Shown here: in pieces, positions 72-36,445 of the stretch
Layout: every line of letters begins with the position of its first letter
How positions within the stretch are numbered: position 1 is the stretch's first letter
Source: a virus
Lineage: Duplodnaviria; Caudoviricetes
Direction: 5' to 3' (one strand)
DNA length: 64,000 nt
IMG/VR virus record: IMGVR_UViG_3300021958_000024
The notes under the pieces: generated by a model
Told to the model about the DNA's origin: nothing
The model's database searches: none
The model's input: the letters and a program-made list of their open reading frames with translations, nothing else
Program-made: the position numbers and the translations under genes

Positions 72-1373
72 ATGGAAAATAAAGACGTACTATCTGGTAA
101 TATTGAAAAGTTTCTTATAACAAGTTTTAAGACCAATGCGTCTATTGATATTAGTGCTGGCATAACCGACTTAAGATACTATGAAAATATTTTATCCAAT
201 ACTATAAGTTTGTCTGTTGTATTTACAGACACTGGATATAAGCAAAATTCTAATGTTAAAGAATCTATATCAGTTTTAGATGGATTGCCATTAAGAGGTG
301 GAGAAGAAGTTGATATAGTCATAGAAGATGCGAAGGATAATCCAACAAGGTTAAAACTAAAACTTTATGTTAATAGAGTTAAAAGTGTAAACTCTAACAC
401 CAATACTGAAACTTATATAATCGATTTTTGCAGCGCAGAGACATTTGCCAACGAACAAAGTAGAGTAGTTGAAAGATATAGTGGTAAGATTTCTGAGAAT
501 GTTAAAACTATTTTAACCGATAAACTAAAGACTAATAAAAATATTATTCTTGATGATACTCTTGTTGATTATGAGTTTATTGGTAATGATAGAAAACCGC
601 TTCATGTTTGTACTTGGTTAGCATCAAGATCAGTTCCTTCTGGATATGGCAAAAAGAATGCCTCTGCTGGTTACTTTTTATATGAAACATCAGACGCATT
701 TAACTTTAGATCTATTGATGGACTAATGAGTCAAAAACCAAAGAATCAATATGTTTACAGTGATACTGCTGAAAAGAAAGATGGTTTTGAGAAAGTTTTA
801 TCATATGGTATTGATAGAAATATTGACTTGCAGGAGCAACTAATACTTGGATCTTACGCTAATAGATCAATATTCTTTGACTTTTATGCTATGGATTATG
901 AGGTTAGAAACTATAGTGTCGATTCAGATCAAAATGGAAAAGCAGTAAACCTTGGAAAGGATGAAAATAATCATGTTGCAGATCAGTTTAGACAACCGAT
1001 ATCGAGATTAATGTCACATATTCTTGATGTTGGAACTCTTCCTCCAGGTAAAACTCCAGTATCTCAGTTAGAAAACTGGAAAACTAGTCCATTAAATCCA
1101 ACTTATGATGTCAAAACCACAATGGTTCAATCAGTCATGAGATATAATCAAATGTTCTCTATTAAGATAAATATAGTAGTAGCTGGAGATTTTGGTTTAA
1201 AGTCAGGAGATGTAGTTTATTTTGAGTTCCCTCAAGTAAAAGCGGGAGATCCTGATGTTGATGTGTTGTCTTCTGGCAAATATGTTATTTCCAGTTTATG
1301 TCACAGAATAACTTCTGCCGACACATTTACTAGTATGACGCTAGTAAGGGATACATTTAGAAAACAAAAGTAA
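72..1373 (+). CDS. Baseplate hub / tail protein (T4 gp27- or GPD-like), putative
   Basis: 433 aa ORF directly upstream of the gp5-like gene; GYFLYETSDAFNFRSID and C-terminal SGKYVISSLCHRI...LVRD resemble phage hub proteins. Confidence 0.55.
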   Translation: MENKDVLSGNIEKFLITSFKTNASIDISAGITDLRYYENILSNTISLSVVFTDTGYKQNSNVKESISVLDGLPLRGGEEVDIVIEDAKDNPTRLKLKLYVNRVKSVNSNTNTETYIIDFCSAETFANEQSRVVERYSGKISENVKTILTDKLKTNKNIILDDTLVDYEFIGNDRKPLHVCTWLASRSVPSGYGKKNASAGYFLYETSDAFNFRSIDGLMSQKPKNQYVYSDTAEKKDGFEKVLSYGIDRNIDLQEQLILGSYANRSIFFDFYAMDYEVRNYSVDSDQNGKAVNLGKDENNHVADQFRQPISRLMSHILDVGTLPPGKTPVSQLENWKTSPLNPTYDVKTTMVQSVMRYNQMFSIKINIVVAGDFGLKSGDVVYFEFPQVKAGDPDVDVLSSGKYVISSLCHRITSADTFTSMTLVRDTFRKQK

Positions 1374-1383
1374 GGAGGAACAA

Positions 1384-1599
1384 ATGGAAAAGTCAATCGA
1401 AGATCATATTGAAAAGGATAAAAAAATCCTTGAAAATCCAATGATCTCTCCACAAATGAGAAGACACACCCAAGATGAGCTGGAACATCTGGAGTTGTAT
1501 CATAAAAATCATCCCGAAGACCATCATGATCCAACAGCATTAGAAATGTATTGTGACGAAAATCCAGATGCTAACGAATGTAGAATTTACGAAGACTGA
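1384..1599 (+). CDS. cp12: CP12 Calvin-cycle inhibitor (auxiliary metabolic gene)
   Basis: 71 aa with the C-terminal CP12 signature PTALEMYCDENPDANECRIYED; RBS AAGGAGG at 1372-1378. Confidence 0.92.
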   Translation: MEKSIEDHIEKDKKILENPMISPQMRRHTQDELEHLELYHKNHPEDHHDPTALEMYCDENPDANECRIYED

Positions 1600-3983
1600 T
1601 GATTCAAGAAGGGTTTTTAAAAAGTCAGCAAGTAGGACGTGACGGATTTGTATGGTGGATTGGTCAAGTTGTTCTTGAAGATCAGTGGGTAGTTAATATT
1701 CCTGGTCGTAGAACTGCTACCACTTCAGATCACTTGGGATTTGATTATAGATACAAAGTTCGTATTATGGGATACCATACTGCGGATGTTCAAGCACTTC
1801 CCGATGAAGATCTTCCTTGGGCAGGTGTAATGCTTCCTGTAACTGCAGGAACTGGTAATGGTGGAGCTTCTCAAACACCAAGCATTAGGCAAGGTGACTT
1901 TTGCTATGGTTTTTTCTTAGATGGTGAAAATGCTCAACATCCAATCATTATGGGTTTGATTGGATACAATCAATATGTTTCTATTAGCAAACTTCCTGCT
2001 GCTGCCTTTCAACCTTTCAGTGGATATACCAGTAGAGATCTTATCGCAAGGTATAACTTAAATGTTGTACAAGAACCCGCAAAAGCACAACAAAACCCAG
2101 AAGGAGTAACACAACAGCAAGGGCAAGAAATAAATCCACAAGTTAATAACTCCAATATTCCAAAAAAGGATGGCGCTTCTGCTGAGCAAGCAATTGATGG
2201 ATATGAAGCTGAGTATTTAGATTCTGAATGTGAACCAATCGCTATAAGCAAAATGCAAAGGGATATTAAAAATGCAATCCAAAAAATTGAAAAATATAAA
2301 AAAACACTATCAAAATGGGAGAATGCTGTATCTACAAAAGTAAATGACATTAGAAATGATCTAAGCACCACAAATGTAACTAACTTTCTTGACAATCTTA
2401 TTCAGTTTGAGATTGATGGATCAACAAAATCTCTTAGCGAAGTAATAAAATGGGTTTTTGTAGAATCACAAAAGTTTGTTACTAAAAAAATAAATGACGC
2501 TGCTAAAGTATCTTATTTCAATCTATTTCCAAATCAAAGACCACAATTAAAAGAAGGTATTGAGAAAGCTAGTGAAGCGGTAGTTTGTCTTTTTAGAAAC
2601 TTAATATCCAATCTGTTAAAAATGATTGGTAACTTCTTAAAAGATTCTTTGAATAAGTTTGTAAATGTTCCTCTTTGTGCCGTTGAAAATCTATTGGGAG
2701 GAATTTTTGGTGCTATCACTGGTCTTATTAATGGTGCATTAAATAATATTTTAGAACCTATTGCATCTTTACTTGGAAACGCTTTTGATATTGCTGGAGA
2801 TGTTCTAGACTTTATTACTGAACTTTTATCATTTATTCTTTGTGACGAAAAACCAGATTGCGCTAAAACAACCGAATGGAGTATATGGGATGGTCCAGAA
2901 CCATCTGCAAATCTAGACGTTGCTTCTATTGTTGATAAAGTTAAAGGTATTGCATCTGCTGTTTCTAACTTTGATATTGATCTAGATTTTATTGGAGACG
3001 TAAATCTTGCTGGAATAATTGATAATGTTGCAGGTTGCTTTACTGGTCCTATCTTGTGTGGTCCTCCCACTGTGACTATCTTCGGTGGTGGTGGTTCTGG
3101 GGCGACTGCAAATGCAATCGTTAGCGGTGCAGGAAAACTGATTGGTGCTGATATTACTGTACCTGGATCTGGATATACTTCTGCACCATTTGTTAAGTTC
3201 CAAGATAACTGTGGAAAAGGTAAAGGTGGATTTGGAAGAAGTAAAATAGATGATCAAGGACGTGTTGCAAGTATTCAAATAGTTACCTCTGGAACTGGAT
3301 ATTTACCTACATTTGACGGAAGTTATGGTGGTGATGGAAGAACTTGGGCAGATAAAGATGATACGATTGTTCAGAGAGCAGATGGAACTTGGGATTCTCC
3401 TTATGGACCAGGAGAAGAAGTTATATTAAATCCAGGAGATCAGGTTCTTTTCCCTGGAAATGATACATATGAAGAGATTACTGATGGATCAGTAGTAGTT
3501 ACACCTCAACAACAGGATCAAGAACAACAGGATCAAGAACTAGTTGAACCTATTTCAAGTGATGGATCAGTAGTAGTTACACCTCAACAACAGGATCAAG
3601 AACAACAGGATCAAGAACTAGTTGAACCTATTTCAAGTGATGGTCAATATCCAGTTGTTTTAGAGTTGATTGATGTTATTATAGATAGTCCAGGATATTC
3701 TTATAGTATTTCAGATGAAATAACTGTAACACCAGATAATGGTGTCAGAATATTCCCAATAATCAGTCCTATCGGATCTATTATTGGTGTAACAGTGGCA
3801 AGTGGTGGATTTGGATTCACAGACATTCCTGAGATAACAATTAGTTCTCAAACAGGATTTAATGCAAGACTTACTCCAGTACTAGGAACTAAGTTTGTTG
3901 GTGAGCAAGAGATTTCTGAGATTGATGATCCAGAAATCATAACAAAAGTGGTAACTGTAGTTGATTGTGTAGGTAGATTCTAA
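1599..3983 (+). CDS. gp5: Baseplate hub/spike gp5-like protein (N-terminal OB-fold); no lysozyme domain recognised
   Basis: FVWWIGQV...RYKVRIMGYH...LPWA...GFFLDG...PIIMG is the gp5 OB-fold signature; GSGYTSAP-type repeats in the C-terminal half. Confidence 0.8.
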   Translation: MIQEGFLKSQQVGRDGFVWWIGQVVLEDQWVVNIPGRRTATTSDHLGFDYRYKVRIMGYHTADVQALPDEDLPWAGVMLPVTAGTGNGGASQTPSIRQGDFCYGFFLDGENAQHPIIMGLIGYNQYVSISKLPAAAFQPFSGYTSRDLIARYNLNVVQEPAKAQQNPEGVTQQQGQEINPQVNNSNIPKKDGASAEQAIDGYEAEYLDSECEPIAISKMQRDIKNAIQKIEKYKKTLSKWENAVSTKVNDIRNDLSTTNVTNFLDNLIQFEIDGSTKSLSEVIKWVFVESQKFVTKKINDAAKVSYFNLFPNQRPQLKEGIEKASEAVVCLFRNLISNLLKMIGNFLKDSLNKFVNVPLCAVENLLGGIFGAITGLINGALNNILEPIASLLGNAFDIAGDVLDFITELLSFILCDEKPDCAKTTEWSIWDGPEPSANLDVASIVDKVKGIASAVSNFDIDLDFIGDVNLAGIIDNVAGCFTGPILCGPPTVTIFGGGGSGATANAIVSGAGKLIGADITVPGSGYTSAPFVKFQDNCGKGKGGFGRSKIDDQGRVASIQIVTSGTGYLPTFDGSYGGDGRTWADKDDTIVQRADGTWDSPYGPGEEVILNPGDQVLFPGNDTYEEITDGSVVVTPQQQDQEQQDQELVEPISSDGSVVVTPQQQDQEQQDQELVEPISSDGQYPVVLELIDVIIDSPGYSYSISDEITVTPDNGVRIFPIISPIGSIIGVTVASGGFGFTDIPEITISSQTGFNARLTPVLGTKFVGEQEISEIDDPEIITKVVTVVDCVGRF
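3483..3643 (+). repeat. Perfect 78-bp in-frame tandem duplication (DGSVVVTPQQQDQEQQDQELVEPISS x2)
   Basis: Identical copies start at 3483 and 3561; each holds a 15-bp inner repeat caacaggatcaagaa x2. Confidence 0.95.
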
Positions 3984-4603
3984 TGGCAGAACCAGTACGT
4001 TGCTACCATACTATTAGATATGGTAATGATCATGGAGAAATAATTTTTGGACACGTTCATGACGATGAGATTATTTCTGGTTGTCAGATTAGAACTGCAA
4101 ATGATGGTGGGCGTCATTATATAACTATGGATAGTTCTGGTCTTTCTGAGACTGGTAGAAAAGGTGGAACTATAATGTCATCACCAGGATCCACTCAGAT
4201 TGTTTGTGGTATGGATGTCGCAAAAGAAATACCAGCATTTATTACAATAGCGAAAAATGGTGATATTGTTTTTAAAGCAAAACGGGGAAGGATCAGATTT
4301 ATAGCAGAAAATATTGATTTGATTGCTAGTGGATCTGATGGAAAAAATGGTAGAATCTTACTAAAAGGTAATGAAAAGGTTAGTATTAAAACTCAAATGT
4401 TTGATGTTGATGCTAATGCTTCGTGTAAAATAGTTTCAGAAAATACTGTAGATATTATAGGAAAATCTATATTAAATGTTTATGGTGGTTTAATAGATTT
4501 TGCTGATGGAGCAACATCTATTAAAGGAGGAAAAGCATTGGGTGGATCATTCCCATTCAGTAATGAAATTAAAAACTCACCTATTATTGGAGACTTTTTA
4601 TAA
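3983..4603 (+). CDS. Baseplate spike-associated protein (beta-rich, gp5 C-terminal-like), putative
   Basis: 206 aa, coupled to gp5 (TAATG overlap); short beta-strand repeats such as NGDIVFKA..GRIRF. Confidence 0.5.
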   Translation: MAEPVRCYHTIRYGNDHGEIIFGHVHDDEIISGCQIRTANDGGRHYITMDSSGLSETGRKGGTIMSSPGSTQIVCGMDVAKEIPAFITIAKNGDIVFKAKRGRIRFIAENIDLIASGSDGKNGRILLKGNEKVSIKTQMFDVDANASCKIVSENTVDIIGKSILNVYGGLIDFADGATSIKGGKALGGSFPFSNEIKNSPIIGDFL

Positions 4604-5569
4604 ATGGCGAAACTACCTGATTGTCATATAACTAAGAGACTCTTTGTTGGCGAAGGTTTAGCCGCATGTCTAGGAGTATCTGCAGCTGAGATTCGTGGTT
4701 CTGCATATATTGAAGGTCCTGCCGTTGTAGGTGTCCCATTAAAGTTTCTTCCATATGAAGCTGGGGTGATGATCAGTAATGTTCAAAATACTGATATGCT
4801 TGCAGTACCAGCTCCAAGTATTGTAAAAATACGATCTACATCAGTACCAACACCGATTGATGTAGTTATTGGAGATATTGCTGGACCTGTAGGAGTTAAT
4901 ATCTTCTGTGGTCCTATGCCATTTGTTGTTTCATCAACATCTATTTCTTTAAATACTTTATTGCGATTTGATGTTTCTAACTTTGACTCAAAGGTTGCAT
5001 CTCTAAAATCTGATATTGGAGCAAAGTTTTTTGCAGGAACAAAACTTGAAACTGGATTTGATTCTAATCTGGGATTAGCATTTAATGCGGCACCTTTATT
5101 TGGTGAAGCTCCAGCAGCATATCCAGACTTTGCTAGTGATGCTACAACTTTAAACACAACTTACGGTATTGCTCTTTCTAAAAAACCATTTGATATTTTA
5201 CACCCAACTAAGGATGGACATAGACTTAGATATGTTTCTTTAGAAGGACCAGCAGCAGAAGTATATTGTAGGGGTAAATCTACTTCTGATGTTATTGATC
5301 TGCCAGATTATTGGTTGGGATTGGTTGAGGAAGATTCTATAACCGTTAACTTAACTTCAGTTGGTAGTGATCAAAATCTATACGTCAAAGAAATTGTAGA
5401 CAACAAGATTTATGTTGGTGGTGGAGTATTGATGAATGGAGAAAGATTATTTAAGTACCACTATACAGTATTTGCAGAAAGAAAAGATACTGAAAAGAAT
5501 ATTCCAGAATATAAAGGGTTGACACCAGATGACTATCCAGGCGATAATAGTGAATATAGATTGAGTTAG
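4604..5569 (+). CDS. Spike/fibre protein with C-terminal chaperone-like domain
   Basis: KPFDILHPTKDGHRLRYVSLEGP..VYCRG...LPDYW..LV...V.AERKD, a C-terminal module typical of cyanophage fibre proteins. Confidence 0.6.
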   Translation: MAKLPDCHITKRLFVGEGLAACLGVSAAEIRGSAYIEGPAVVGVPLKFLPYEAGVMISNVQNTDMLAVPAPSIVKIRSTSVPTPIDVVIGDIAGPVGVNIFCGPMPFVVSSTSISLNTLLRFDVSNFDSKVASLKSDIGAKFFAGTKLETGFDSNLGLAFNAAPLFGEAPAAYPDFASDATTLNTTYGIALSKKPFDILHPTKDGHRLRYVSLEGPAAEVYCRGKSTSDVIDLPDYWLGLVEEDSITVNLTSVGSDQNLYVKEIVDNKIYVGGGVLMNGERLFKYHYTVFAERKDTEKNIPEYKGLTPDDYPGDNSEYRLS

Positions 5570-5570
5570 A

Positions 5571-6248
5571 ATGAAAAAAGTTCATGAGTTATTTCCTCTG
5601 GTAATCTACCAGGGAAGTTTGGATTGCCATGAAGAGTTTAAAAGAGATAATATAGAAAGTTTAAAGAAGTATTGGTTTAATGGTTATGAGCATGAATCTC
5701 CAGAAGCGTCGTCAAATATTTTTGCCCATTTAAATACTGACTATTCTGTGTTCTTCAAATCACTTAGAAAGGTATTTGATGATTATTTTGATACGTTGAA
5801 TATAAAATATGATAGATTAAGTTATCATATATGCAAATCATGGGTTGTTTATCATAGAGATGATACTACTCCGCCAATGGCACCACATAATCACAATGAG
5901 GCAAATATAAGTTTTGTGTATTATTTAAATACTGACGAAACTTCTGATAGATTTGTTGCTATGCAAATGAATAACAGTAATGAAGTATGTCAAGGATTCT
6001 TTGATACTGCTGACGTACATAACCTCATGACAAACTTCAATAGATATAACTGCAATAACTATACAATAACTCCTATAGAAGGTTCTGTTATTGTAATGCC
6101 TACTCAAACGTTCCATAAGACTATTAAAAAGAAAGCTAGAACAAATGAAAGAATTGCTATTGCTGGAGATGTTCGGGTTACTTTAAAACCAGAACATTTT
6201 AAACATCATCAAGGTTGTACACATCCCTCACAATGGTTGGAAATATGA
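5571..6248 (+). CDS. 2OG-Fe(II) oxygenase-like protein (TIGR02466-like)
   Basis: SWV...PHNH...ISFVYYL...H...RIAIAGD double-stranded beta-helix motifs. Confidence 0.8.
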   Translation: MKKVHELFPLVIYQGSLDCHEEFKRDNIESLKKYWFNGYEHESPEASSNIFAHLNTDYSVFFKSLRKVFDDYFDTLNIKYDRLSYHICKSWVVYHRDDTTPPMAPHNHNEANISFVYYLNTDETSDRFVAMQMNNSNEVCQGFFDTADVHNLMTNFNRYNCNNYTITPIEGSVIVMPTQTFHKTIKKKARTNERIAIAGDVRVTLKPEHFKHHQGCTHPSQWLEI

Positions 6249-6571
6249 CGTATAAGATTGTAAATGATTCTAGAAAACCTATTTTAATAAAACATTCTGA
6301 AATATGTTCCCCTCCACCAAATGATCTTCTCATAGATGATGTTGATACATCTTATCCAGGGATTGTTATTAAATACGAAAATGGTTATTTGATTGAAGAT
6401 GGTGTTCATAGAATGGCAAAACTTCAAAAACAAGGAATATTTGAGTCTCTATTTTATGTTGTAAGTATTGAAGAATATAGGAATGGAATGGTTTCCATGA
6501 AGTATCGAGAAACTTTTATAACTCTAGGTGCATGGAATCATAACTTTTTATCGCCAAGACCTCACAAATAA
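6245..6571 (+). CDS. Small ParB/Srx-fold protein
   Basis: YPGIV...YLIEDGVHRM matches the ParB N-terminal DGxHR motif; ATG 6245 overlaps the upstream stop. Confidence 0.55.
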   Translation: MTYKIVNDSRKPILIKHSEICSPPPNDLLIDDVDTSYPGIVIKYENGYLIEDGVHRMAKLQKQGIFESLFYVVSIEEYRNGMVSMKYRETFITLGAWNHNFLSPRPHK

Positions 6572-6600
6572 ATAAACCATAGCAATGTTATGCGGAAGAA

Positions 6601-8229
6601 ATGGCTAAAAAAAGGAATGTTGAATCTATCGATAAGATTACATCCCAACTTATTACTGATAAGGTAGATATTGATAGATTTGCTAGAGAGCAAATAGTTA
6701 CTTTAGAAACTGCTAAAGTACCCTATCAAGAGGCATCTAAAAATTTAGATCTTTATTTGCTTGAAAGTTGTCAAGAAGTAAATACTGCTTATGAAAATGT
6801 AGAAAAATCTTATCAAAAGAGAATAGATGCTGGCGGTGCCAGTGATTTATTTTGGAGGATTGTGGGAGTATCTAGTCTTACTTCTACTACTCCAAATCCG
6901 AATACTGGACCACAAACAAAAGTTGTCGGTGTTTCATATGAGTTAAGATGTGAACGTTTGTCGAGAACGTATGATGCACAAGAAAATGTTGGATCAGGTT
7001 CTTCCACTTTTGATTTTAACCCTTCTAGCGTTCAAATATATCTTGGGAGAGAAGCGGGTATTGGTGATCAGCAACCATTAACGTCAGCTGGTAGTGATAT
7101 GGATAGTGTTTTTAAACCTGTCAATCTTCATGGGATAAAGATAGATATAGAACCATATAGTAGAGATGTTCTCGAAACTTATGTAAATGTTTCGATTGGA
7201 ACCGCTGATCTTGGAGGAACAAGACTATTTTTAGGTGAAATATATGATGATATTGAAATTGGACAGTTAGTTTCTTCAGAACCACAAATCTTATTTCCAG
7301 ACTCTGGTGTTAATATTGTAACTGGCGTTGGTACTGCAATCGCAAATCTTACAGGAATACCAAATACTTCTGGTGTAAATGGTGAGATAGTGACCTATGT
7401 TGATTTACGAGACCCCGTAACTCAACTTGTAACTGCTCCATTATTTGATGGGCAATATCCGACATTCACATTTTCAATATCTCCAGATCAAGTCTCTGAT
7501 AGTATTTCTGTTGGTGAACGTGATAGTCCTTATGAGCTTCAACAAGTGAAAAAAATGGTTGCATCTGATGCTGGAACAGGTGTAGAAGTAGAATACGATA
7601 ACTCTGGGGTGGAAGTGTATAATGCAGAATGGCCACATTTTATGGACGGATATCCAGACCCTAAGAATGTTAGTCGTATTATTAGAGAACCTAAAGTTGG
7701 AAGTGGAAAAGTATATTATCCAATTGGATTTGATAGAAAACCTTTGAAAGCTAGTGGTGGTAATGCTGCTGAGGGAGATACCAGAACAATATCGGAGTAT
7801 ATTTCTACATTTGGTGGATTTTTTGATCCTAACTCACCACAACATCCAGATTTTGTCCCCGCATATAGTAGTCAACTTAACAATACTCCAGAAATAGATG
7901 CTGAAATAAAATCTAATGAAACTGAAGCTTTACAAAAAGAGAGTTCATTGAAATATAATGATGAGTTTTATAATAGTATTTCTCTTGCCAACAAAATAAA
8001 AAAGGAATATAATGATTTTAATATTAGAATATGGGCATATAGAGTTCAAATCGGAAAAGCTAAACAGGAAAAACTAGAAAAAGAAGAGTTTAAAACTCTT
8101 ATCAATAATGATACATATAAACCTGTTGCCAATACTGGAGGGCCTCCAGTAGTAGATAGAAACTATCCAATGTCTTCTAATACCACTTTAATGACTTCGG
8201 CAGTTTTGACATTTGATATCACTGTATAA
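6601..8229 (+). CDS. Late virion structural protein, unknown function
   Basis: 542 aa; ATAAATA at 6568-6574; G/T/S-rich core. Confidence 0.55.
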   Translation: MAKKRNVESIDKITSQLITDKVDIDRFAREQIVTLETAKVPYQEASKNLDLYLLESCQEVNTAYENVEKSYQKRIDAGGASDLFWRIVGVSSLTSTTPNPNTGPQTKVVGVSYELRCERLSRTYDAQENVGSGSSTFDFNPSSVQIYLGREAGIGDQQPLTSAGSDMDSVFKPVNLHGIKIDIEPYSRDVLETYVNVSIGTADLGGTRLFLGEIYDDIEIGQLVSSEPQILFPDSGVNIVTGVGTAIANLTGIPNTSGVNGEIVTYVDLRDPVTQLVTAPLFDGQYPTFTFSISPDQVSDSISVGERDSPYELQQVKKMVASDAGTGVEVEYDNSGVEVYNAEWPHFMDGYPDPKNVSRIIREPKVGSGKVYYPIGFDRKPLKASGGNAAEGDTRTISEYISTFGGFFDPNSPQHPDFVPAYSSQLNNTPEIDAEIKSNETEALQKESSLKYNDEFYNSISLANKIKKEYNDFNIRIWAYRVQIGKAKQEKLEKEEFKTLINNDTYKPVANTGGPPVVDRNYPMSSNTTLMTSAVLTFDITV

Positions 8230-26988: not shown

Positions 26989-26990
26989 AA

Positions 26991-27047: not shown

Positions 27048-27067
27048 TGGGTATCCATGAGGTGAAC

Positions 27068-27166: not shown

Positions 27167-27597
27167 TGTTGTACTTAGAACAGTCAGGAAAAGGGTCTAG
27201 AAGACTCTCTAAGGACGTTGTAACGTGGTTTATGTGGAAATACCTTCCTAGACACAATATAGAGGTTTCTTTGCTTCATAGAGGTCTTTTAAGAGAAGGT
27301 GTTTATGGGTGGTGTAGCGTACAAGATTGTGATCATCGACCAAGATCCTTTTTGGTTGAGGTTCATAATAAACTAGACCAAGACACTTTCATTAAAGTTT
27401 TACTACATGAACTTTGGCATGTCAAACAGTTTGTTACTGGTGATATGAGAGACAAAAAAGGTAAAAAACACTGGAAAGGAGTTGACATCTCTGATGTTGA
27501 CTATGATGACGATCCTAGTGAGATTGAAGCAACTGAAATGGAAAACCCATTGCATTACGAGTACAGTCTTGACAGACTCATCGGATCCATTGTATAA
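27166..27597 (+). CDS. Zn-metallopeptidase-like protein
   Basis: LLHELWHVKQ (HExxH) plus downstream PSEIEA. Confidence 0.7.
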   Translation: MLYLEQSGKGSRRLSKDVVTWFMWKYLPRHNIEVSLLHRGLLREGVYGWCSVQDCDHRPRSFLVEVHNKLDQDTFIKVLLHELWHVKQFVTGDMRDKKGKKHWKGVDISDVDYDDDPSEIEATEMENPLHYEYSLDRLIGSIV

Positions 27598-27598
27598 T
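27569..27598 (+). promoter_or_regulatory. Sigma70-type early promoter
   Basis: TTGACA-18 nt-TATAAT. Confidence 0.75.
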
Positions 27599-27635
27599 CG
27601 CTTTGTCAGTATTGGAGTTCATTAAAGACTAATCT

Positions 27636-27830
27636 ATGAAAAAGAAGTTTGTTTCTCTTGTTCCTTTGAGTTCAGCAGCAAAGTTTCGATTTGCCACTGA
27701 AATGGATCATTTTCACGCATGTATGGTTTTAGGAGAGACTGATGACATGTTTGATTTGGTTTCTTTGAATGGTCAGTATTTGACTAAAGTTCCTAAGAAA
27801 GGGAACTCTCACTGGCAAGTTGTTAAATAG
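27636..27830 (+). CDS. Small hypothetical protein
   Basis: 64 aa; FVSLVPLSSAAKFRF...LVSLNG resembles 43240-43425 (FVTPKSKKARNRF...LRSLNG). Confidence 0.65.
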   Translation: MKKKFVSLVPLSSAAKFRFATEMDHFHACMVLGETDDMFDLVSLNGQYLTKVPKKGNSHWQVVK

Positions 27831-27853
27831 TTTTACATTAGAGTATTCTAACT

Positions 27854-28051
27854 ATGAAAGATCAGTACACCATTGACGACGGCGAATCCAAACAAGACAA
27901 ATGGAATCGTGGTCTTGATATTTTTATTGAATCAGTGCATAAACCAGATCCTGCACTAAGGCAATGTGCCCATAATCAAAAGTGTTACCATGAGTTAATG
28001 GAAGTGAGAGATAATGTATTGAAATACTTAAATACACTTAGATGGCATTGA
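27854..28051 (+). CDS. Small hypothetical protein
   Basis: 65 aa, KPDPALRQCAHNQKCYHELM. Confidence 0.65.
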   Translation: MKDQYTIDDGESKQDKWNRGLDIFIESVHKPDPALRQCAHNQKCYHELMEVRDNVLKYLNTLRWH

Positions 28052-28052
28052 A

Positions 28053-28247
28053 ATGAACTATAAACCATATAGTCCTGAGTGGCACAGATATAGGTATTTG
28101 AAGGAAGCGATTGATAAGTACCTGGATGATTATGTTGATAATCAGGATATCATGAATGATATTTTAGATATTATCTGTGATCGTTCAGAAATAGCATACA
28201 AAGAGTTTAGTAAACTCAATGAACTAGAAGCAAAATTGCGTAACTAA
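28053..28247 (+). CDS. Small hypothetical protein
   Basis: 64 aa, tightly packed in the operon. Confidence 0.65.
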   Translation: MNYKPYSPEWHRYRYLKEAIDKYLDDYVDNQDIMNDILDIICDRSEIAYKEFSKLNELEAKLRN

Positions 28248-28248
28248 A

Positions 28249-28566
28249 ATGCTTTCAACTCAATACAGACTAAAACTAGAGTTTATTTGCAAATGTATTG
28301 TAAATGGGGAAGAAGTAAAACTTGAAGATATTATTTGGGCAGAGAAACTTGCTAAAGCAAATACTACTGCAAGGGATTGGTTAAACAAAGCACGCAGAAA
28401 GGCAGCAAATCCTGATATGCAGGAGGGAAGTATGGATGATTTTATGAATAAAATGGGTTTAGGAGATCCTGACCCATCAAATCACCGCACTGGTTTCGGT
28501 AGTGCTGATGAAATAGTAGACTGGTTTAGGCAAGACAAACCAGATGATTGGCGCACTCGTGATTGA
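28249..28566 (+). CDS. Hypothetical protein
   Basis: 105 aa, MLSTQYRLKLEFIC...DKPDDWRTRD. Confidence 0.7.
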   Translation: MLSTQYRLKLEFICKCIVNGEEVKLEDIIWAEKLAKANTTARDWLNKARRKAANPDMQEGSMDDFMNKMGLGDPDPSNHRTGFGSADEIVDWFRQDKPDDWRTRD

Positions 28567-28567
28567 T

Positions 28568-28659
28568 GGTGGGCAGCAACAGTAAGTCTTGGCGGAATTA
28601 TGTTGCGTAAGACCCACCCATATGTTATGATAAATAATAATAGTCACGCCAAGACTTAC
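28568..28659 (+). promoter_or_regulatory. Structured leader with antisense loop plus late promoter for the HNH gene
   Basis: ggtggg/cccacc and gcaaca/tgttgc stems; loop gtaagtcttggcg (28582-28594) is the reverse complement of cgccaagacttac (28647-28659) next to the ATG; ATAAATA at 28630-28636. Confidence 0.7.
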
Positions 28660-28660
28660 A

Positions 28661-29122
28661 ATGAAAGTATCACAACATCCACTGTATCATACTTGGAATG
28701 GTATGGTTCGTCGCTGTAAAGACCCCAAAAATATAAATTATCCAGATTATGGTGCTCGTGGAATAGAAATTTATGAAGAGTGGTCTGAAAGAGGGTTTCA
28801 CGGCACCACACAAACTCCGCCAGGTTTTATAAAGTTTCTAAAATATATTGATGAAAATTTGGGTGAAAGACCAGAAGGATGCTCTATTGATAGAATAGAC
28901 AACAACTCTGGATACATTCCTGGTAATATAAGATGGGCGGATAACTATACACAAAATATAAATCGTAGATGTCCGAATGGTTCTTTGAGAAATATAAGAA
29001 AAGTTCCGTCTGGTAAATATCAAGTTAATATGTGGTATAAAAAAACTAACTATTATGTTGGAACTTATAACACAGTAGATGAGGCAGTTATTGCCAGAGA
29101 TAAGTATAGAAAAGAATTATAG
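28661..29122 (+). CDS. Free-standing HNH-family homing endonuclease with AP2-like C-terminus
   Basis: W.GM..RC...YPDYGARGI...RPEGCSIDRIDNNSGYIPGNIRWA...Q..NR; C-terminal YVGTYNTVDEAVIARD. Confidence 0.85.
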   Translation: MKVSQHPLYHTWNGMVRRCKDPKNINYPDYGARGIEIYEEWSERGFHGTTQTPPGFIKFLKYIDENLGERPEGCSIDRIDNNSGYIPGNIRWADNYTQNINRRCPNGSLRNIRKVPSGKYQVNMWYKKTNYYVGTYNTVDEAVIARDKYRKEL

Positions 29123-29130
29123 GAGGCAAC

Positions 29131-29370
29131 GTGACTAAAACTGTAGTTATCTATTCTAATGGTAGTCAAGAATGTGAACGTATAAAAATGCTTTTACAAA
29201 GTCTTGATGGAGAATTTCATGAATATCTTGTAGATTGTGATTTCAGTGAAAGACAGTTTCGGATGGAGTTTGGAGATGAAGCAACATATCCACAAGTTGC
29301 GATAGGTAACAAACACATCGGAAATATGAATGAAACTCTTAAATATATGAAACAAAACGGAATGATTTAA
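29131..29370 (+). CDS. Glutaredoxin-like protein (single active-site Cys)
   Basis: VVIYSNGSQECERIK...TYPQV.IG.KHIG; GGAGG RBS, GTG start. Confidence 0.7.
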   Translation: MTKTVVIYSNGSQECERIKMLLQSLDGEFHEYLVDCDFSERQFRMEFGDEATYPQVAIGNKHIGNMNETLKYMKQNGMI

Positions 29371-29615
29371 TGAATACTTACAACTCAACACTTCTAATAA
29401 TCTTTGGTGTTATTGGATACATAATGATAGTTGACAAAAATGTTGCAGACTATTTTATTCTTTTAACTAAGATTATTGGGTTAAATGCTGAGAGATTGTA
29501 TTGGATGATACGGTTGCATCCTAAAAACTTTGTAACAACCTGGATCAGCAACCGAAAGTATGATAAGATTGCAAGGCAGATGCACAAGGAGTTCCAAGAC
29601 CGCAGTGATCAGTGA
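29370..29615 (+). CDS. Small membrane protein
   Basis: 81 aa with a hydrophobic N-terminus. Confidence 0.6.
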   Translation: MNTYNSTLLIIFGVIGYIMIVDKNVADYFILLTKIIGLNAERLYWMIRLHPKNFVTTWISNRKYDKIARQMHKEFQDRSDQ

Positions 29616-30009
29616 CAGCATTTACAAACTTGCTATTGAAGTTGCAAAATCATCACGCTCAAAAAAGAAAGTTGGTGCAGTTTTACTAAACAAAAGCAAA
29701 GTAGTTGTTTCTGGCACTAATCTAGAAAGAAAATCACATCCTCTACAGGCAAGATTTGCTGAACGTGCAGGACTCAAAGAAAAGATTTATCTTCATGCCG
29801 AGATTTCCGCACTTGTCAAATGTAGAGAAGAATGTGATACTATAGTAGTTGCACGAGTTAATCCTCAAAACAAACTTCGAATGGCACGTCCATGCCCAAT
29901 CTGTGAACTGGCACTAAAAGAAGCAGGGATTACAAAAATCCATTACACTACAAACCAAGGTTTTCTTTACGAGTATCAATGTTTGACAAAACTGACCATG
30001 ATGAGATGA
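29605..30009 (+). CDS. Cytidine/dCMP deaminase-family Zn protein
   Basis: VGAVL...HAEISAL...RPCPIC; likely GTG start at 29605 after AAGGAG. Confidence 0.8.
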   Translation: MISDSIYKLAIEVAKSSRSKKKVGAVLLNKSKVVVSGTNLERKSHPLQARFAERAGLKEKIYLHAEISALVKCREECDTIVVARVNPQNKLRMARPCPICELALKEAGITKIHYTTNQGFLYEYQCLTKLTMMR

Positions 30010-30281
30010 AAGAGCGTCTTAGTGATGTTGTTTTTGAATATCTTTCCGATAAAGAATCACTGCCACTATTTCTATCAGACTTAAATGAAATAGTTAAAAG
30101 TAACTATGACTACTTCAAAACTTATGCAGATGGGTGTAAAGAAGTTTTAGATAAACTTCCTGTTTATCACAACGATCTTGTTGAGTACTCCAAGTATTAT
30201 TATGATCGAGATCGTAATCGAAGCACCTCAATCAATAATGCTTCTAAAAAGGATTGGGATGACTTTTGGGAAGGTTTGTAA
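29979..30281 (+). CDS. Hypothetical protein
   Basis: 100 aa ORF in a packed operon. Confidence 0.55.
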   Translation: MFDKTDHDEMKERLSDVVFEYLSDKESLPLFLSDLNEIVKSNYDYFKTYADGCKEVLDKLPVYHNDLVEYSKYYYDRDRNRSTSINNASKKDWDDFWEGL

Positions 30282-30451
30282 TGGCAAATAACAAATGGAA
30301 CATTGATGATGATGAGAGTCTATACGAGATCATCATGAACTTAGAAAAAAGAGTAAATGAGTTAGAAAAAGAAAATGTGGGAACCACAAACACACTTTAC
30401 GAAATCTTGAACACTTTAGAAACAATCCAATGGCACTATCAAAATCAGTAG
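30281..30451 (+). CDS. Small coiled-coil protein
   Basis: LEKRVNELEKENV; TAATG coupling. Confidence 0.55.
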   Translation: MANNKWNIDDDESLYEIIMNLEKRVNELEKENVGTTNTLYEILNTLETIQWHYQNQ

Positions 30452-30627
30452 AAGAAAGTTTGAATGAAGCGGAGAGTAATCTTCGCAATGCTCTAGCATT
30501 TGCTGCTAGACAAGAAAGACCTCTTGTTTGTAATAACATCTCCAAACTTATTTTGGATATTGAACATATCAAGTCTTTTGATGAACTACTAGATACTATT
30601 GATCAATCTATTCAGATTGACAAATAA
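30430..30627 (+). CDS. Small hypothetical protein
   Basis: MALSKSVEESLNEAESNLRNALAFAAR. Confidence 0.65.
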   Translation: MALSKSVEESLNEAESNLRNALAFAARQERPLVCNNISKLILDIEHIKSFDELLDTIDQSIQIDK

Positions 30628-30645
30628 ACTACAAACAAGTAAACT
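30617..30645 (+). promoter_or_regulatory. Sigma70-type early promoter
   Basis: TTGACA-17 nt-TAAACT. Confidence 0.7.
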
Positions 30646-30667
30646 TACGGAGTAACCTAAAGAAGAA

Positions 30668-30901
30668 ATGAAGTACCTCTACGTTGTCGATCATTTTGTT
30701 CCATTCCCATCCTCTGAATATGGTGGTATTTGGAATGTAGTCGCTTCAAATAATGAAGAATGTTTTGATTTGATTACAGATTTTGATGCAGATGATAATG
30801 TTGGGCATTATTCTGATCTACGACAAAACATTATGAAAGCAAGGGTATTTCCTCTTGCACAAGATATTGAATCATCAGTAATCGCTGAGTTTACAACATG
30901 A
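30668..30901 (+). CDS. Small hypothetical protein
   Basis: YVVDHFVPFPSSEYGG. Confidence 0.7.
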   Translation: MKYLYVVDHFVPFPSSEYGGIWNVVASNNEECFDLITDFDADDNVGHYSDLRQNIMKARVFPLAQDIESSVIAEFTT

Positions 30902-31077
30902 AGTTTTCATTAAAATCTGAAGTCTGTTACAAAGATTTGTATGGATTTGTAGATTTTATTGACAGTGAGTGTATAGTTATTCAACTACCAACACCACCAG
31001 GTAGAAATCCTCCAAGAGTTGTTGTTTATCACTGTGACTTTGATAAAGTCAAAGTTTTGAAAGATAGTGATAAATAA
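30898..31077 (+). CDS. Small hypothetical protein (not in ORF track)
   Basis: MKFSLKSEVCYK...LKDSDK*, 59 aa, ATGA coupling. Confidence 0.6.
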   Translation: MKFSLKSEVCYKDLYGFVDFIDSECIVIQLPTPPGRNPPRVVVYHCDFDKVKVLKDSDK

Positions 31078-31098
31078 TAAAAAAATACTATTACTAAA

Positions 31099-31275
31099 AT
31101 GGCAAGATTAATGGCAAAACTAGGACTAGGTGTTTCCGTTGCGGATTTCAACAACGATGAACACGTTGAAGATAGGACACCAACAGTCACTGCTGTTGCA
31201 GATGATATCTCTGTGTCAGAACCTGAAAGTAAACTTAATCTAGGTATTTCTGTAGATACTGATCTTGATGAATGA
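31099..31275 (+). CDS. 58-aa acidic late peptide (not in ORF track)
   Basis: ATAAATA at 31070-31076; MARLMAKLGLGVSV...KLNLGISVDTDLDE*. Confidence 0.55.
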   Translation: MARLMAKLGLGVSVADFNNDEHVEDRTPTVTAVADDISVSEPESKLNLGISVDTDLDE

Positions 31276-31484
31276 TTAAAAAACGAGTTCAACCAGAAAC
31301 TCCAACAAAACCTTTCCATGAAACCTTTCCTTTTGGTCTAAGTTGGACCACAAAAGAAGGAAAGAAAGAACTTGAACACTTTGCTTATTTCCCATACGAT
31401 GACTACAGATCAAGATACATGCAGCGATTCAAAAGTGAAGGAGGTAGAAAGTTCAAGCGATTCAAAACCAAACCAAGAGTATGA
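31272..31484 (+). CDS. Small basic hypothetical protein
   Basis: 70 aa, ATGA coupling. Confidence 0.55.
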   Translation: MIKKRVQPETPTKPFHETFPFGLSWTTKEGKKELEHFAYFPYDDYRSRYMQRFKSEGGRKFKRFKTKPRV

Positions 31485-31689
31485 GTGGATTGATGATGCT
31501 TTCCGCGTAGAAGAAACACGTTTTATGTGGAAAAGTGTCCGTAAAGATAATGGTAAAGACTTTTTATTTGGTGTTACTAAAGAAGCGGTGATTCATATGT
31601 CACGCTGGCATCTTAAATGTGAACAAGAAGGAACTCTTGAACAACATACAAGAGTAGTTGGAGATGGTTTTGTTGGTGGAAAACTATAA
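31399..31689 (+). CDS. Hypothetical protein
   Basis: EWIDDAFRVEETRFMWKS...VGGKL; start uncertain. Confidence 0.6.
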   Translation: MTTDQDTCSDSKVKEVESSSDSKPNQEYEWIDDAFRVEETRFMWKSVRKDNGKDFLFGVTKEAVIHMSRWHLKCEQEGTLEQHTRVVGDGFVGGKL

Positions 31690-31692
31690 ATA
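31685..31692 (+). promoter_or_regulatory. T4-type late promoter
   Basis: TATAAATA 25 nt upstream of ATG 31717. Confidence 0.75.
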
Positions 31693-31716
31693 ACACTAAA
31701 CTGTGTTTATATAAAA

Positions 31717-32151
31717 ATGAAGTCTTACAAAGAGTTTGTTTCTGAAGCATTCAAAAGAACTGGCAAGAAAATATCCTTTGTAAGACTTCATCATGGGTCT
31801 GATGAAGACTCAGTAAAATCAATCAAAAAGAGTGGTCCTAGACCTTCACCTAAAGGTAGTGAGGGTCCAGGACATTATGTCACTCCAGATAAAAAGAAAG
31901 CATCAAAATATGCTGAGTTTACTTCTAAATCAAGAAAGAAGAAACCAGCAGTAGTATCATATAGAGTTTCAAAGAAAAGGATTACTAATACAGATAGTAT
32001 TCCAAAAGGACTTACATCTCAAAAGAAAACTACAAGTGAGAAACCAGTTGTAAGAAATACACGAACTGGTCATGTTGCCATGGACGCTGACTATGCGAAT
32101 AAGAAAATGATTCGTAAGACAGAACCTATTATTCGTAGAAAAAGGAGGTAA
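31717..32151 (+). CDS. ADP-ribosyltransferase-fold protein with capsid-targeting-like N-terminus
   Basis: MKSYKEFVSEA versus T4 CTS MKTYQEFIAE; RLHHGS...GPGHYVT....A..YA ART motifs. Confidence 0.65.
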   Translation: MKSYKEFVSEAFKRTGKKISFVRLHHGSDEDSVKSIKKSGPRPSPKGSEGPGHYVTPDKKKASKYAEFTSKSRKKKPAVVSYRVSKKRITNTDSIPKGLTSQKKTTSEKPVVRNTRTGHVAMDADYANKKMIRKTEPIIRRKRR

Positions 32152-32156
32152 GTATT

Positions 32157-34154
32157 ATGGCAGATCCAAAAACTGATATAAATGAATCTTTATGTTGTAT
32201 TGCTTTAAGATATATTGATAAGTATCCAACAAATAGTGTGGATGATTTTGTTGACATGATAACTACTGAGGGTAAAAAACCAGAGGAGTGGAGTGATAAT
32301 GGTGTTCTGGAAAATTTGGAAATAGGAAGAGGAAAATATAGAACACATTCAACATATAGATCTGCTTATGGTCAGAAAGATTCAAATAAAAATTTAAAAT
32401 ATGAAACTTGGATTAAAGGGTCATTTTATAGTGCTCAAGCAATAAGGAAAAAGTTAAATGTTGTTTTAAGTCAATACATCATATCAAGACCAGACGAAGA
32501 AGAAAATAATAAATCTTATATAATTAAAGAGAAATGTGCTTCTGCAATCAAAAATTGGTCAAATGTTTTTAGCAGGACTGATGTAGCAAAAGCACAAAAA
32601 TGGTCTCCGGGAATTTTATCTAAGTTAAACTCTGATAAAATTAATATTGCAGATATTATGTTAATACATAAAAATCCTGAAGTTTATGATGAACTTGATG
32701 AAATTCAAGAAATAACAAATAAAGTAAAATGGAAGGATGTCTGTAATAATCCATCAATCATTAAAAATTTACTAACACCCAAAAAATATAATGAATACAT
32801 GAATAGAGCATGGTTGATAAAAGATATATTCAACATTTCTTTAAAAAAAGTATTGTCTGAAAATTTTCCTGTAAAACTGATAAACTTAGACAGAAACTCT
32901 GCCAAAGAATATGATAGTGATATTGACGAATTTCAATTTTTGCTAACATCATTAGTTGGTGCTGCTAAATCTGGTTCTCTTTCTAATTTTGAAAACCTAA
33001 TTAAAGAAACTATTGATTTAGAACCTGTTATTTTTTCTGCAAATGATAGATTGGAAGTTAAATATAAACTTAATATCAAAAATCTTAACTTGAATAAAGT
33101 AAAGTCATATGATTATACAATGTGGACTAATTTTGGTGGAGGTCAAAATTCTGTTTACTTTTCTCAAGCAGGCAGTAAATCTGCTTCTGGAGAAGGAGGA
33201 ATAACACTTACTTACTTTTCAAATTTGGTTAAAGATATTCCAAAGTTAAGAACGTTCCTAACATATATGAAACTAAAAAGAAAAGAATATTTTAATGCAG
33301 CATGTCAAAAATATGGTTTAAATTTTAGTGATTCTAAAATGGGAGATTCTTCACTATCAAATGCCAAATATAATTCTATTCTTTATACATCAAATGATTT
33401 CAAAAAGTTAGTTCATGTTCTATTGACTGATGAACCAGTAACACAAAAAGATGTAATCACGCCTATAAAATATATCACCAAAAGTACTGGAGAGGTGATT
33501 ATAAATGATGGTCAAAAATTAACCAAAATTGATTATAAGTCAATGTTAGTCTTGGAAGATTTTTTTAAATCATATGTTAATTTTTTATCAAACAATAGTA
33601 GTCAAATGGGAACATATTTTGGTTTGAGTGAAAAAACGAAAAAAAGTTTAATAACTCAAGGAAGAAAAATGTATCAAAAATTTGAACAAGTTTATAATAA
33701 AGAAGTTTTATCAAAGAAAAAGAAAAAATTAGATCAAAAAAAATATGAAACTTTGAAAAAAGACATTGGTAAAATTAAAGGCATTAGTGGAACAGAGACA
33801 ACAAAACTAAAAAATGAAAGAATACTTAACGCAGTTTCTTTGACAGAGAGTGAAATTAAGTCAATAAAACAATTTTCTGTCTCAGAAGCAAGAAAATGGA
33901 AAAGCAAAGAATATAAAAGTTTTAAAGAATCATATAAAAAAGGATTTGCACTTCTTGCAAATGCGGAGTTTGGTTATATGTATTCTGAATACGCAGATAA
34001 AATTAACGAATTGGTGAAAAAACAAGTATTACTATCATTATATGCCGCAGCAAGTGGTAGAGGTTATATTATATTTGAAGGAAAAAAATTTGAAATGGAT
34101 GATTATTTTGAAAAAGATGTAAAAGGTGCTCCTTATCTAAAAGTTGGTATGTGA
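32157..34154 (+). CDS. Large AT-rich, Lys-rich protein with a PD-(D/E)xK-like nuclease motif
   Basis: N-terminal ESLCC helix, DKINIADIMLI...ISLKK (NPADIW..SLKK-type nuclease motif). Confidence 0.5.
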   Translation: MADPKTDINESLCCIALRYIDKYPTNSVDDFVDMITTEGKKPEEWSDNGVLENLEIGRGKYRTHSTYRSAYGQKDSNKNLKYETWIKGSFYSAQAIRKKLNVVLSQYIISRPDEEENNKSYIIKEKCASAIKNWSNVFSRTDVAKAQKWSPGILSKLNSDKINIADIMLIHKNPEVYDELDEIQEITNKVKWKDVCNNPSIIKNLLTPKKYNEYMNRAWLIKDIFNISLKKVLSENFPVKLINLDRNSAKEYDSDIDEFQFLLTSLVGAAKSGSLSNFENLIKETIDLEPVIFSANDRLEVKYKLNIKNLNLNKVKSYDYTMWTNFGGGQNSVYFSQAGSKSASGEGGITLTYFSNLVKDIPKLRTFLTYMKLKRKEYFNAACQKYGLNFSDSKMGDSSLSNAKYNSILYTSNDFKKLVHVLLTDEPVTQKDVITPIKYITKSTGEVIINDGQKLTKIDYKSMLVLEDFFKSYVNFLSNNSSQMGTYFGLSEKTKKSLITQGRKMYQKFEQVYNKEVLSKKKKKLDQKKYETLKKDIGKIKGISGTETTKLKNERILNAVSLTESEIKSIKQFSVSEARKWKSKEYKSFKESYKKGFALLANAEFGYMYSEYADKINELVKKQVLLSLYAAASGRGYIIFEGKKFEMDDYFEKDVKGAPYLKVGM

Positions 34155-36443: not shown

Positions 36444-36445
36444 TT

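Follow-up and report, generated by a model that had tools for sequence, protein, structure and literature searches.

Several enzymes that cut the bare tetranucleotide AATT are known, among them MluCI, Tsp509I and Sse9I, and both palindrome avoidance and phage-borne methylases are textbook matters. In the chloroviruses (PBCV-1 and relatives), restriction-modification systems such as CviJI and CviAII equip a lytic virus with both a sequence-specific endonuclease and a methylase; the former is believed to break down the DNA of the host, and the viral DNA is protected by methylation. In phage T4, the breakdown of host DNA involves EndoII and EndoIV, which act on cytosine-containing DNA, the phage DNA being protected by hydroxymethylcytosine. 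Here, we analyzed a stretch of 64,000 nucleotides from the IMG/VR virus record IMGVR_UViG_3300021958_000024 (hereafter, the window, meaning this whole stretch), which is strongly depleted in AATT and which encodes, in adjoining genes, a candidate AATT-specific restriction endonuclease with a predicted miniature EcoRI fold and a putative adenine methyltransferase of the Dam family. The depletion probably stems from the nuclease that the phage itself encodes.

Judged by its gene content and DNA matches, the window belongs to a T4-like cyanomyovirus of marine cyanobacteria. Open reading frames (ORFs) cover 93% of it, and searches with PHROGs and Pfam identified baseplate hub, tail, tail-fibre and virion structural genes, as well as genes for a 2-oxoglutarate (2OG)-Fe(II) oxygenase, a dCMP deaminase, a UvsW-type helicase and a gp7-like protein of 4163 residues. 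The DNA matches were to T4-like phages of Synechococcus and Prochlorococcus. It represents an uncultured lineage. Among named phages, P-TIM68 has the best match to its tail protein (42% identity), and the nearest relative of the window is a 47-kb IMG/VR contig (G001) that is 98.2–98.6% identical over window positions 1–32146.

The whole window contains 128 AATT words, compared with 686 expected from its base composition, 673 under a first-order and 523 under a second-order Markov model. Dinucleotide-preserving shuffles gave 671 ± 23 words, with none of 100 shuffles coming near the observed count, and shuffling of synonymous codons within each of 72 ORFs gave 598 expected against 124 observed, i.e., a ratio of observed to expected words (O/E) of 0.21. 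Across the Markov, dinucleotide-shuffle and codon-shuffle expectations, O/E was 0.19–0.24, and the second-order z value of −24.0 was the lowest among all 256 tetramers. When a 2-kb cassette described below was taken out, O/E fell to 0.15, and all 16 NAATTN contexts were depleted (O/E 0.00–0.38); all three codon phases of the word were affected. The strong avoidance of AATT that the initial annotation had proposed was therefore confirmed under each type of null: O/E stayed far below 1 after codon and dinucleotide correction, and trinucleotide bias did not suffice to explain the deficit. The manual counts behind that proposal proved exact, both for depleted genes (1 in ORF 72–1373, 5 in 9554–15520, 7 in 18065–24109 and none in 36982–38391) and for those singled out as rich in the word (29 in ORF 32157–34154 and 4 in the HNH ORF 28661–29122). 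The two regions described as richer without a count, at 41.6–42.3 kb and 53.6–58 kb, have 6 and 18, respectively.

The target of the avoidance is the bare tetramer. GAATTC, CAATTG and RAATTY were considered as the true target and rejected, since no hexamer deficit was found beyond the AATT effect and all 16 contexts were depleted. Other A/T words occurred at normal frequency (AAAA, 0.98; ATAT, 0.90; TTAA, second-order O/E 0.96; AAAT likewise normal), in agreement with the earlier remark that TTAA and ATAT are common, and the AAT and ATT trinucleotides were slightly low (0.83 and 0.93, respectively). GATC was not avoided in the window.

The deficit is visible in the choice of synonymous codons. 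The share of AAA among Lys codons dropped from 69% overall to 8% before TTN, and those of GAA among Glu codons and CAA among Gln codons dropped from 73% to 10% and from 76% to 10%, respectively, where AATT would form. The same holds for Asn, where AAT accounts for 80% of codons overall and 13% before T, for Ile, with ATT at 69% overall and 16% after NNA, and for Leu, with TTR at 46% overall and 5% after NAA (p ≤ 1e-16 in each of the six cases). The synonymous dodging of the word noticed initially is hence real: codon preference flips only in contexts that form AATT, and about four in five AATT words have been removed by codon rewriting.

We compared the window with its relatives; here and in all cross-genome values below, O/E refers to base composition unless a second-order Markov model is named. 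In the close kin (L006–L008; at least 95% amino acid identity), loci around the same tail gene had an O/E of 0.12–0.13, and 22 loci of the next relatives (around 50% amino acid identity, guanine-plus-cytosine (GC) fraction 0.34–0.37) had values of 0.76–1.28, or 0.83–1.01 under a second-order Markov model. AATT depletion is, therefore, lineage-specific, and because relatives of the same GC content have an O/E near 1, AT content, codon usage and DNA bending are excluded as its cause. The nuclease was not found in five long contigs of these next relatives.

The few AATT sites that remain also turn over fast. Those of the window were not conserved in 13% of cases against G001 (other A/T tetramers, 3–6%; rank 3 of 243 words), in 68% against L007 (17–32%; rank 3 of 216 words) and in 44% against L306 (18–26%), i.e., turnover between close relatives was two to four times that of other A/T tetramers. 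This is what a mutation–selection balance predicts. With these ranks against G001 and L007, the long-term selection postulated in the initial annotation appears strong, specific and probably still acting.

A candidate agent of this selection is encoded in the window as a protein of 179 residues. Pfam and PDB sequence searches, run with the single sequence and with a profile, returned nothing significant for it, and structure comparison alone identified its fold. In an AlphaFold2 model built on 32 homologues (predicted local distance difference test score, pLDDT, 83), the top five Foldseek matches were all EcoRI (E 3e-5, probability 1.0), and VIA-align superimposed the model on EcoRI with Z 14.0–14.4 and a root-mean-square deviation of 2.6–2.8 Å over 154–155 of 189 residues, the next fold reaching Z 8.8. 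As modelled, the protein has a PD-(D/E)XK alpha-branch fold superimposable on that of EcoRI. Part of its sequence reads EPDGGLWFYKGKLISVFEGKKQQDRGNAIERW. Residues P75-D76-G77-G78, E91 and K93, which keep the catalytic PDGG..ExK motif, are invariant in the 32 homologues, and so are G99-N100-A101-I102 and R104, with E103 nearly so (90% or more). The hexapeptide GNAIER (G99–R104) is identical to EcoRI residues 140–145.

In EcoRI, the corresponding motifs lie at positions 89–93 (KPDGG), 110–113 (AEAK, with EAK at 111–113) and 140–145 (GNAIER), and EcoRI, MunI and the AATT cutter MluCI have been grouped as possible mosaics (PMC11755562). When EcoRI is bound to DNA, the central base pairs have Ala142 wedged in between them, and the inner A:T and T:A pairs form bonds with Asn141, Ala142 and Arg145 (PMC4081073). 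The orthologue of the phage protein in S-CREM2 was annotated by its depositors as "restriction endonuclease EcoRI", and a precomputed match to PF02963 is on record for two of its homologues in the database. No close homologue turned up when 185,579 prokaryote genomes were scanned with back-translated patterns, a result of little weight given how narrow these patterns were. From the motifs and from the depletion, we infer that the phage nuclease is active and cuts AATT.

The start codon of the putative methyltransferase overlaps the nuclease stop codon (positions 36982–36985). Its product carries a DPPY motif, its best PADLOC model is a Type II restriction-modification methyltransferase (3e-45), and its best PDB hits are DpnM (E 3e-24) and EcoDam (3e-10). 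It is 78–80% identical to the nuclease-adjacent methylases of S-RIM2 and S-BM1 and has an identity of just 25–32% to the Dam genes of other cyanophages. How EcoDam reads the G:C pairs of its site through K9, R124 and Y138 has been described (PMC4417163). These three residues align with I6, Q135 and L151 of the phage methylase, so the set that reads GATC is absent, and the residues that read or intercalate at the inner A:T pairs (EcoDam Y119, N120, L122 and P134) are kept as F, N, I and P. Gln occupies the position of EcoDam R124 in all 59 nuclease-linked methylases (59/59). As GATC and AATT differ in their outer pairs only, it is reasonable to suppose a specificity shift from the former to the latter, in which case the methylase would modify AATT.

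A D12 methylase lies within around 1.5 kb of the nuclease in most carrier loci; of the 40 de-duplicated loci that span 10 kb or more, 32 have one in view. Carriers without a linked methylase are G007–G009, L118/L119 and L127–L134. In many carriers, an extra ORF of around 340 codons separates nuclease and methylase (e.g., L031:3645-4688 of S-RIM2 and L105:10824-11843), leaving a gap of 0.9–1.5 kb. It matches DUF6551 weakly (E 1e-4 to 8e-3) and is optional, since the window and some S-RIM2 isolates lack it; the 8.5-kb locus of S-RIM2 has 11 AATT sites, of which 3 fall in this ORF.

Presence of the nuclease gene and AATT depletion are strongly associated, with exceptions in both directions that are given below. 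The five large carriers had O/E values of 0.19 (the window), 0.20 (S-RIM2, 175 kb, in which AATT is the most under-represented word, z −26), 0.23 (S-CREM2), 0.09 (G010, 42 kb) and 0.00 (G007, 112 kb). As non-carriers, we took 13 complete cyanomyovirus genomes that were negative in a profile search for the nuclease: S-PM2 (1.00), S-T4 (0.94), S-IOM18 (0.94), S-RIM8 (0.93), S-WAM2 (0.91), S-CAM9 (0.91), P-SSM5 (0.82), P-TIM68 (0.74), Syn1 (0.73), S-CAM1 (0.72), P-HM1 (0.71), S-SSM7 (0.65) and ACG-2014f (0.34). All five large carriers fell below all non-carriers (range 0.34–1.00, median 0.82; one-sided Mann–Whitney p = 8e-4, or 1e-3 with second-order Markov values, shared ancestry being ignored in both). 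Among the 40 de-duplicated IMG/VR carrier loci, the median was 0.29, compared with around 1.1 in non-carrier relatives (p = 1.6e-9, again ignoring shared ancestry).

The extreme case is G007, which contains no AATT at all where 599 would be expected in 112 kb; the word is likewise missing from its sister contigs, G008 and G009 (20 kb each). G007 encodes an intact nuclease (68% identical), located between uvsW/lysozyme-like and 2OG oxygenase genes, and no methylase of the D12, N6_N4 or EcoRI type was found anywhere in its 112 kb.

Taken together, we regard self-avoidance of a phage-encoded AATT nuclease as the most likely mechanism and give it fairly good, though by no means full, credence. The phage would carry its own Type II-like restriction-modification pair (36446–37821), both enzymes of which would target AATT. 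Wherever the host chromosome or the DNA of co-infecting phages carries the word unmethylated, the nuclease would cleave it; the phage genome itself would owe its protection in part to methylation and in part to the scarcity of sites. Any unmethylated AATT on rapidly replicating phage DNA would be a liability, and synonymous changes that remove the word would be favoured genome-wide. Imported DNA would arrive at normal AATT density, be tolerated owing to the methylase and be purged over time, and in the related G007 lineage, where no methylase was found, the purge would be complete.

A number of observations weigh against this mechanism. Two carriers (L118 and L119; L119:1797-2330) encode a 60–62% identical nuclease with intact motifs, yet have an O/E of 0.69–0.85; no methylase was found within 10 kb of their nuclease homologue. 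L032, L033, L036, L105 and several carriers of distant homologues likewise lie at 0.56–0.94. Conversely, ACG-2014f (L286–L289) is AATT-poor without a nuclease homologue (0.34 by base composition, 0.60 by second-order Markov model, z −9), and in a uvsW-anchored sample, the 56 fragments that reach 8 kb and show no nuclease within their length had a median of 0.58 (range 0.20–1.06); in five AATT-poor contigs of that sample, which are just 6–35% complete, no nuclease was found. The depletion could also predate acquisition of the nuclease. Around 100 AATT sites are left in the window backbone, and protection must therefore rest on the putative methylase. As regards the enzyme itself, the nuclease has no Pfam hit and does not reach the PF02963 threshold, 3 of the 32 homologues match this family weakly (best E 0.011), and the sequence profile did not reach EcoRI in the PDB. 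Finally, the argument for AATT cleavage and methylation is partly circular, being drawn from the motifs and from the depletion itself.

In the 153–171-kb contigs L032 and L033, the methylase is split into two ORFs of around 140 codons (L032:10819-11678 and L033:10819-11669), the nuclease ORF is intact and AATT stands at 0.64; these contigs may represent a decaying system.

The alternative that survives best is classical anti-restriction, i.e., that AATT cutters of the hosts (marine or estuarine Synechococcus) or of co-infecting phages drove the avoidance, the phage's own pair being incidental or captured for its protective methylase. Textbooks attribute the avoidance of sites to enzymes of the host, and other cyanomyoviruses lose other palindromes without a known phage nuclease: GTAC in Syn1, S-WAM2 and P-HM1, GATC in S-RIM8 and CCGG in many. 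The low AATT content of ACG-2014f and of some fragments without a visible nuclease is, moreover, as expected from external cutters. However, S-PM2, S-T4, S-CAM1 and S-IOM18 were isolated on Synechococcus WH7803, as was S-RIM2, and have an O/E of 0.72–1.00 as against 0.20, which argues against a host enzyme as the agent. The depletion also tracks the nuclease gene, the zero-AATT genome G007 keeps its nuclease without a methylase having been found there, and, with the low weight noted above, the prokaryote scan gave no close nuclease homologue. As an account of the depletion as a whole, we find anti-restriction unlikely; AATT cutters acting from outside, in hosts or in co-infecting carrier phages, could nevertheless explain the intermediate O/E values, whether as the chief competing explanation or as an added pressure.

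Selection at the RNA level, in which an endoribonuclease or another process would target AAUU in transcripts with the DNA palindrome as a by-product, is very improbable. The palindrome is identical on both strands, so strand asymmetry cannot separate DNA from RNA selection, and nearly the whole window is transcribed, as its ORF coverage implies; but such selection would not account for why the depletion goes with genes for an EcoRI-fold nuclease and a DNA methylase, nor for its absence from close relatives whose codon usage is the same, and the effect extends to each of the 16 flanking contexts and to every codon phase. Least probable of all is an artefact of composition or structure, be it codon usage, a bias in trinucleotides or the avoidance of bent DNA resembling A-tracts, which could draw on the slightly low AAT and ATT values and which is refuted, together with dinucleotide bias, by the nulls used (O/E 0.21–0.24 after codon and trinucleotide correction), by the normal AAAA, AAAT, ATAT and TTAA, by relatives of the same GC content near 1 and by codon flips limited to AATT-forming contexts.

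Self-avoidance of the nuclease might be part of a wider strategy, which we put forward tentatively and are more inclined to doubt than to accept. T4-like cyanophages without modified bases might tell self from non-self by a 4-bp word, with an early-expressed AATT nuclease that would shred the DNA of the host, of competitors or of both. The phage genome would escape by methylation and codon rewriting, the methylase becoming dispensable where rewriting is complete (0 sites in 112 kb), and AATT density would both record residence and form a barrier to gene flow from non-carriers.

The features of the window are compiled in Table 1. In its first 34,445 nucleotides, the window shows three structural differences only from G001, its 98.6%-identical relative: a patch within a 2-kb ORF, an HNH endonuclease insertion and a replaceable cassette. 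These three segments hold 38 of the 78 AATT sites in 10% of the length (binomial p = 6e-18), as compared with 40 sites in the 31 kb of backbone shared with G001 (O/E about 0.12). The comparison with gene presence and absence in relatives, which had been suggested at the outset, thus came out as anticipated: segments absent from or replaced in G001 have near-normal AATT content (O/E 0.65–0.77). In particular, the patch holds all three AATT sites of its ORF (O/E 0.65), the HNH insertion has 6 sites where 8.5 are expected (O/E 0.71), and the cassette segment reaches 0.77. The exceptions to the depletion pointed out initially were likewise real under codon shuffling (ORF 32157–34154, 0.86; HNH, 0.76; ORF 41652–41885, 1.3; ORF 42032–42325, 0.9). 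The HNH insertion consists of the gene plus around 0.3 kb of flank and sits between two conserved ORFs of small size; it has the look of a homing endonuclease that invaded recently.

Table 1. Coordinates of the features discussed, in window positions unless a locus is named.
Feature	Coordinates	Strand	Details
AATT-depleted T4-like cyanomyovirus backbone	1..64000	.	128 AATT vs. 523–686 expected, four nulls; structural, early and gp7-like genes
393-bp patch in ORF 24176–26191	24876..25268	+	unaligned with G001; gap between blastn segments
HNH endonuclease insertion	28568..29359	+	ORF 28661–29122; G001 contiguous across the gap; PHROG HNH, E 6e-35
Replaceable cassette	32147..34445	+	ORF 32157–34154, 665 residues, GC 27%, 29 AATT
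Cassette family members	window 32157–34154; L386:10001-12016; L387:10001-11977; L388:10001-12070		just upstream of uvsW
Candidate AATT-specific restriction endonuclease, predicted miniature EcoRI fold	36446..36985	+	179 residues from ATG at 36446; ORF open from 36416 also
Putative D12-class (Dam-family) N6-adenine DNA methyltransferase	36982..37821	+	PF02086, E 1e-31
Two small ORFs with normal AATT	41600..42330	+	41652–41885 and 42032–42325; 6 AATT vs. 5.6 expected
Less depleted middle of gp7-like gene 51136–63627	53600..56600	+	53.6–58 kb block, O/E 0.31 vs. 0.07 elsewhere

From the start of the cassette onwards, G001 has a different gene of 573 codons before uvsW, with no significant similarity to the 665-codon gene of the window. 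At this locus in nuclease carriers, O/E values of gene and flank were 0.87 and 0.15 in the window, 0.84 and 0.30 in L388 (689 codons), 0.60 and 0.14 in G001 (573 codons), 0.20 and 0.15 in L389 (565 codons) and 0.05 and 0.04 in L390 (565 codons), a gradation from undepleted to depleted as a qualitative indicator of residence predicts. The cassette family of 658–689 residues has a GC content of around 27% in the four genomes examined, carriers and non-carriers alike, with flanks at around 38%; part of its composition is therefore intrinsic to the gene. The residence-time clock proposed in the initial annotation accordingly holds as a qualitative marker of recent arrival, in view of the concentration of sites in the three segments and of the gradation at the cassette locus, but not as a calibrated clock, given this intrinsic composition.

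The 665-residue cassette protein had no Pfam and no PHROG match and a marginal PADLOC hit (E 0.007), and its AlphaFold2 model (pLDDT 77) had no PDB match at E ≤ 0.001. Its Atlas neighbours include restriction-enzyme families at scores of 0.84–0.86, a lead at most. Two phages that lack the AATT nuclease have a gene for an N6_N4 methylase no more than around 2 kb from the cassette family gene. Uneven distributions of AATT were also seen in other carriers: positions 1–3000 of G010 (L243) hold 10 of its 26 sites, and S-CREM2 has a local AATT-rich island at 65–85 kb (10–18 words per 5 kb vs. 0–9 in the rest).

As for the gp7-like gene, its middle is indeed richer in AATT, as noted initially (1.2-kb windows reach 0.38–0.45 at 53.5–56.5 kb; binomial p = 5e-4 for heterogeneity of a block that was picked post hoc), but the swapped segment suggested on this basis was not supported as a recent event. 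L306 is 91.7% identical to the window over 17.5 kb, with a flat identity of 0.89–0.95 per 600 bp across gp7 and no identity step. Of the 21 AATT sites that the two have in common, 10 fall at 53.7–56.6 kb; this uniform identity and the shared sites give no hint of a recent swap. The region is possibly an import older than the split from L306, or one in which purging is weaker.

Several other words are scarce in the window. RGCY words are nearly absent (GGCT 5, AGCC 4, GGCC 5 and AGCT 41; O/E 0.04–0.20), a depletion common to carriers and non-carriers of the AATT nuclease (S-RIM2, S-PM2, G007 and most loci). CCGG occurs 4 times in the window (O/E 0.06) and not at all in S-RIM2 (175 kb), S-PM2 (196 kb) and G007 (112 kb), and is normal in the freshwater-like relatives of the window (L011–L015 and L024–L026). 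Among the named cyanomyovirus loci (L266–L305), second-order O/E values for GTAC were 0.00 in Syn1, 0.10 in S-WAM2 and 0.29 in P-HM1, and those for GATC were 0.12 in S-RIM8 and 0.36 in S-IOM18.

If the nuclease cuts AATT, the virus's own weapon, not a host defence, would have reshaped the codon choice of a genome of around 160–175 kb. This would offer a possible answer to the question of how the DNA of the host is broken down by cyanomyoviruses, which lack T4's modified bases, and AATT content would provide a practical marker of recent gene flow into abundant ocean viruses. The enzyme pair is present in the cultured phage S-RIM2 (Synechococcus WH7803), which makes the idea directly testable. 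From an enzymological standpoint, a predicted AATT cutter of 179 residues and a Dam-family methylase possibly shifted from GATC to AATT by a few substitutions are of interest as well.

Compared with the EcoRI/RsrI/MunI/MluCI group (Type IIP, PD-(D/E)XK alpha branch, PF02963), the phage nuclease is alike in its modelled fold (Z 14), in the PDGG..ExK and GNAIER motifs and in its adjoining methylase gene. It differs in size, with 179 residues against 277 in EcoRI, i.e., around 90 residues shorter, around 21 of them missing between ExK and GNAIER, and in sequence, with an identity to EcoRI of around 17% and no match above the Pfam threshold. Furthermore, it is encoded by a lytic T4-like phage and not by a bacterium or plasmid, its putative partner is a Dam-family (D12) methylase instead of the EcoRI-type methylase PF13651, and its predicted site is the bare AATT, like that of MluCI. 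The methylase, in turn, shares with the Dam enzymes of E. coli, T4 and DpnII (GATC) the D12 fold, the DPPY motif and the readers of the inner A:T pairs, and departs from them by the changes K9I, R124Q and Y138L, in which the outer G:C readers are replaced.

With regard to restriction-site avoidance in phage and bacterial genomes, the window likewise has a lineage-specific deficit of a short palindrome achieved by synonymous changes. Unlike in the usual case, the best candidate agent is encoded by the avoiding genome itself and not by the host, and the avoidance coexists with a putative protective methylase in most carriers and is total where none was found. The chloroviruses are another virus group with another host and other enzyme families, and genome-wide purging of sites is not their described mechanism. 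The logic of T4 would be shared if the nuclease attacks host DNA, which is hypothetical, in that phage DNA is spared by a chemical or sequence difference; here, discrimination would rely on a 4-bp word and N6-methyladenine, not on a modified base, and there is no homology. A search of the open-access full-text literature found no description of a phage-encoded EcoRI-fold AATT nuclease with self-avoidance. What sets this system apart from those described is that lytic T4-like cyanophages encode an enzyme with a predicted miniature EcoRI fold, that its putative partner is of the Dam family and has changes in the residues that read the site, and that the avoidance is genome-wide, is apparently driven by the phage's own enzyme and is total in one lineage in which no methylase was found.

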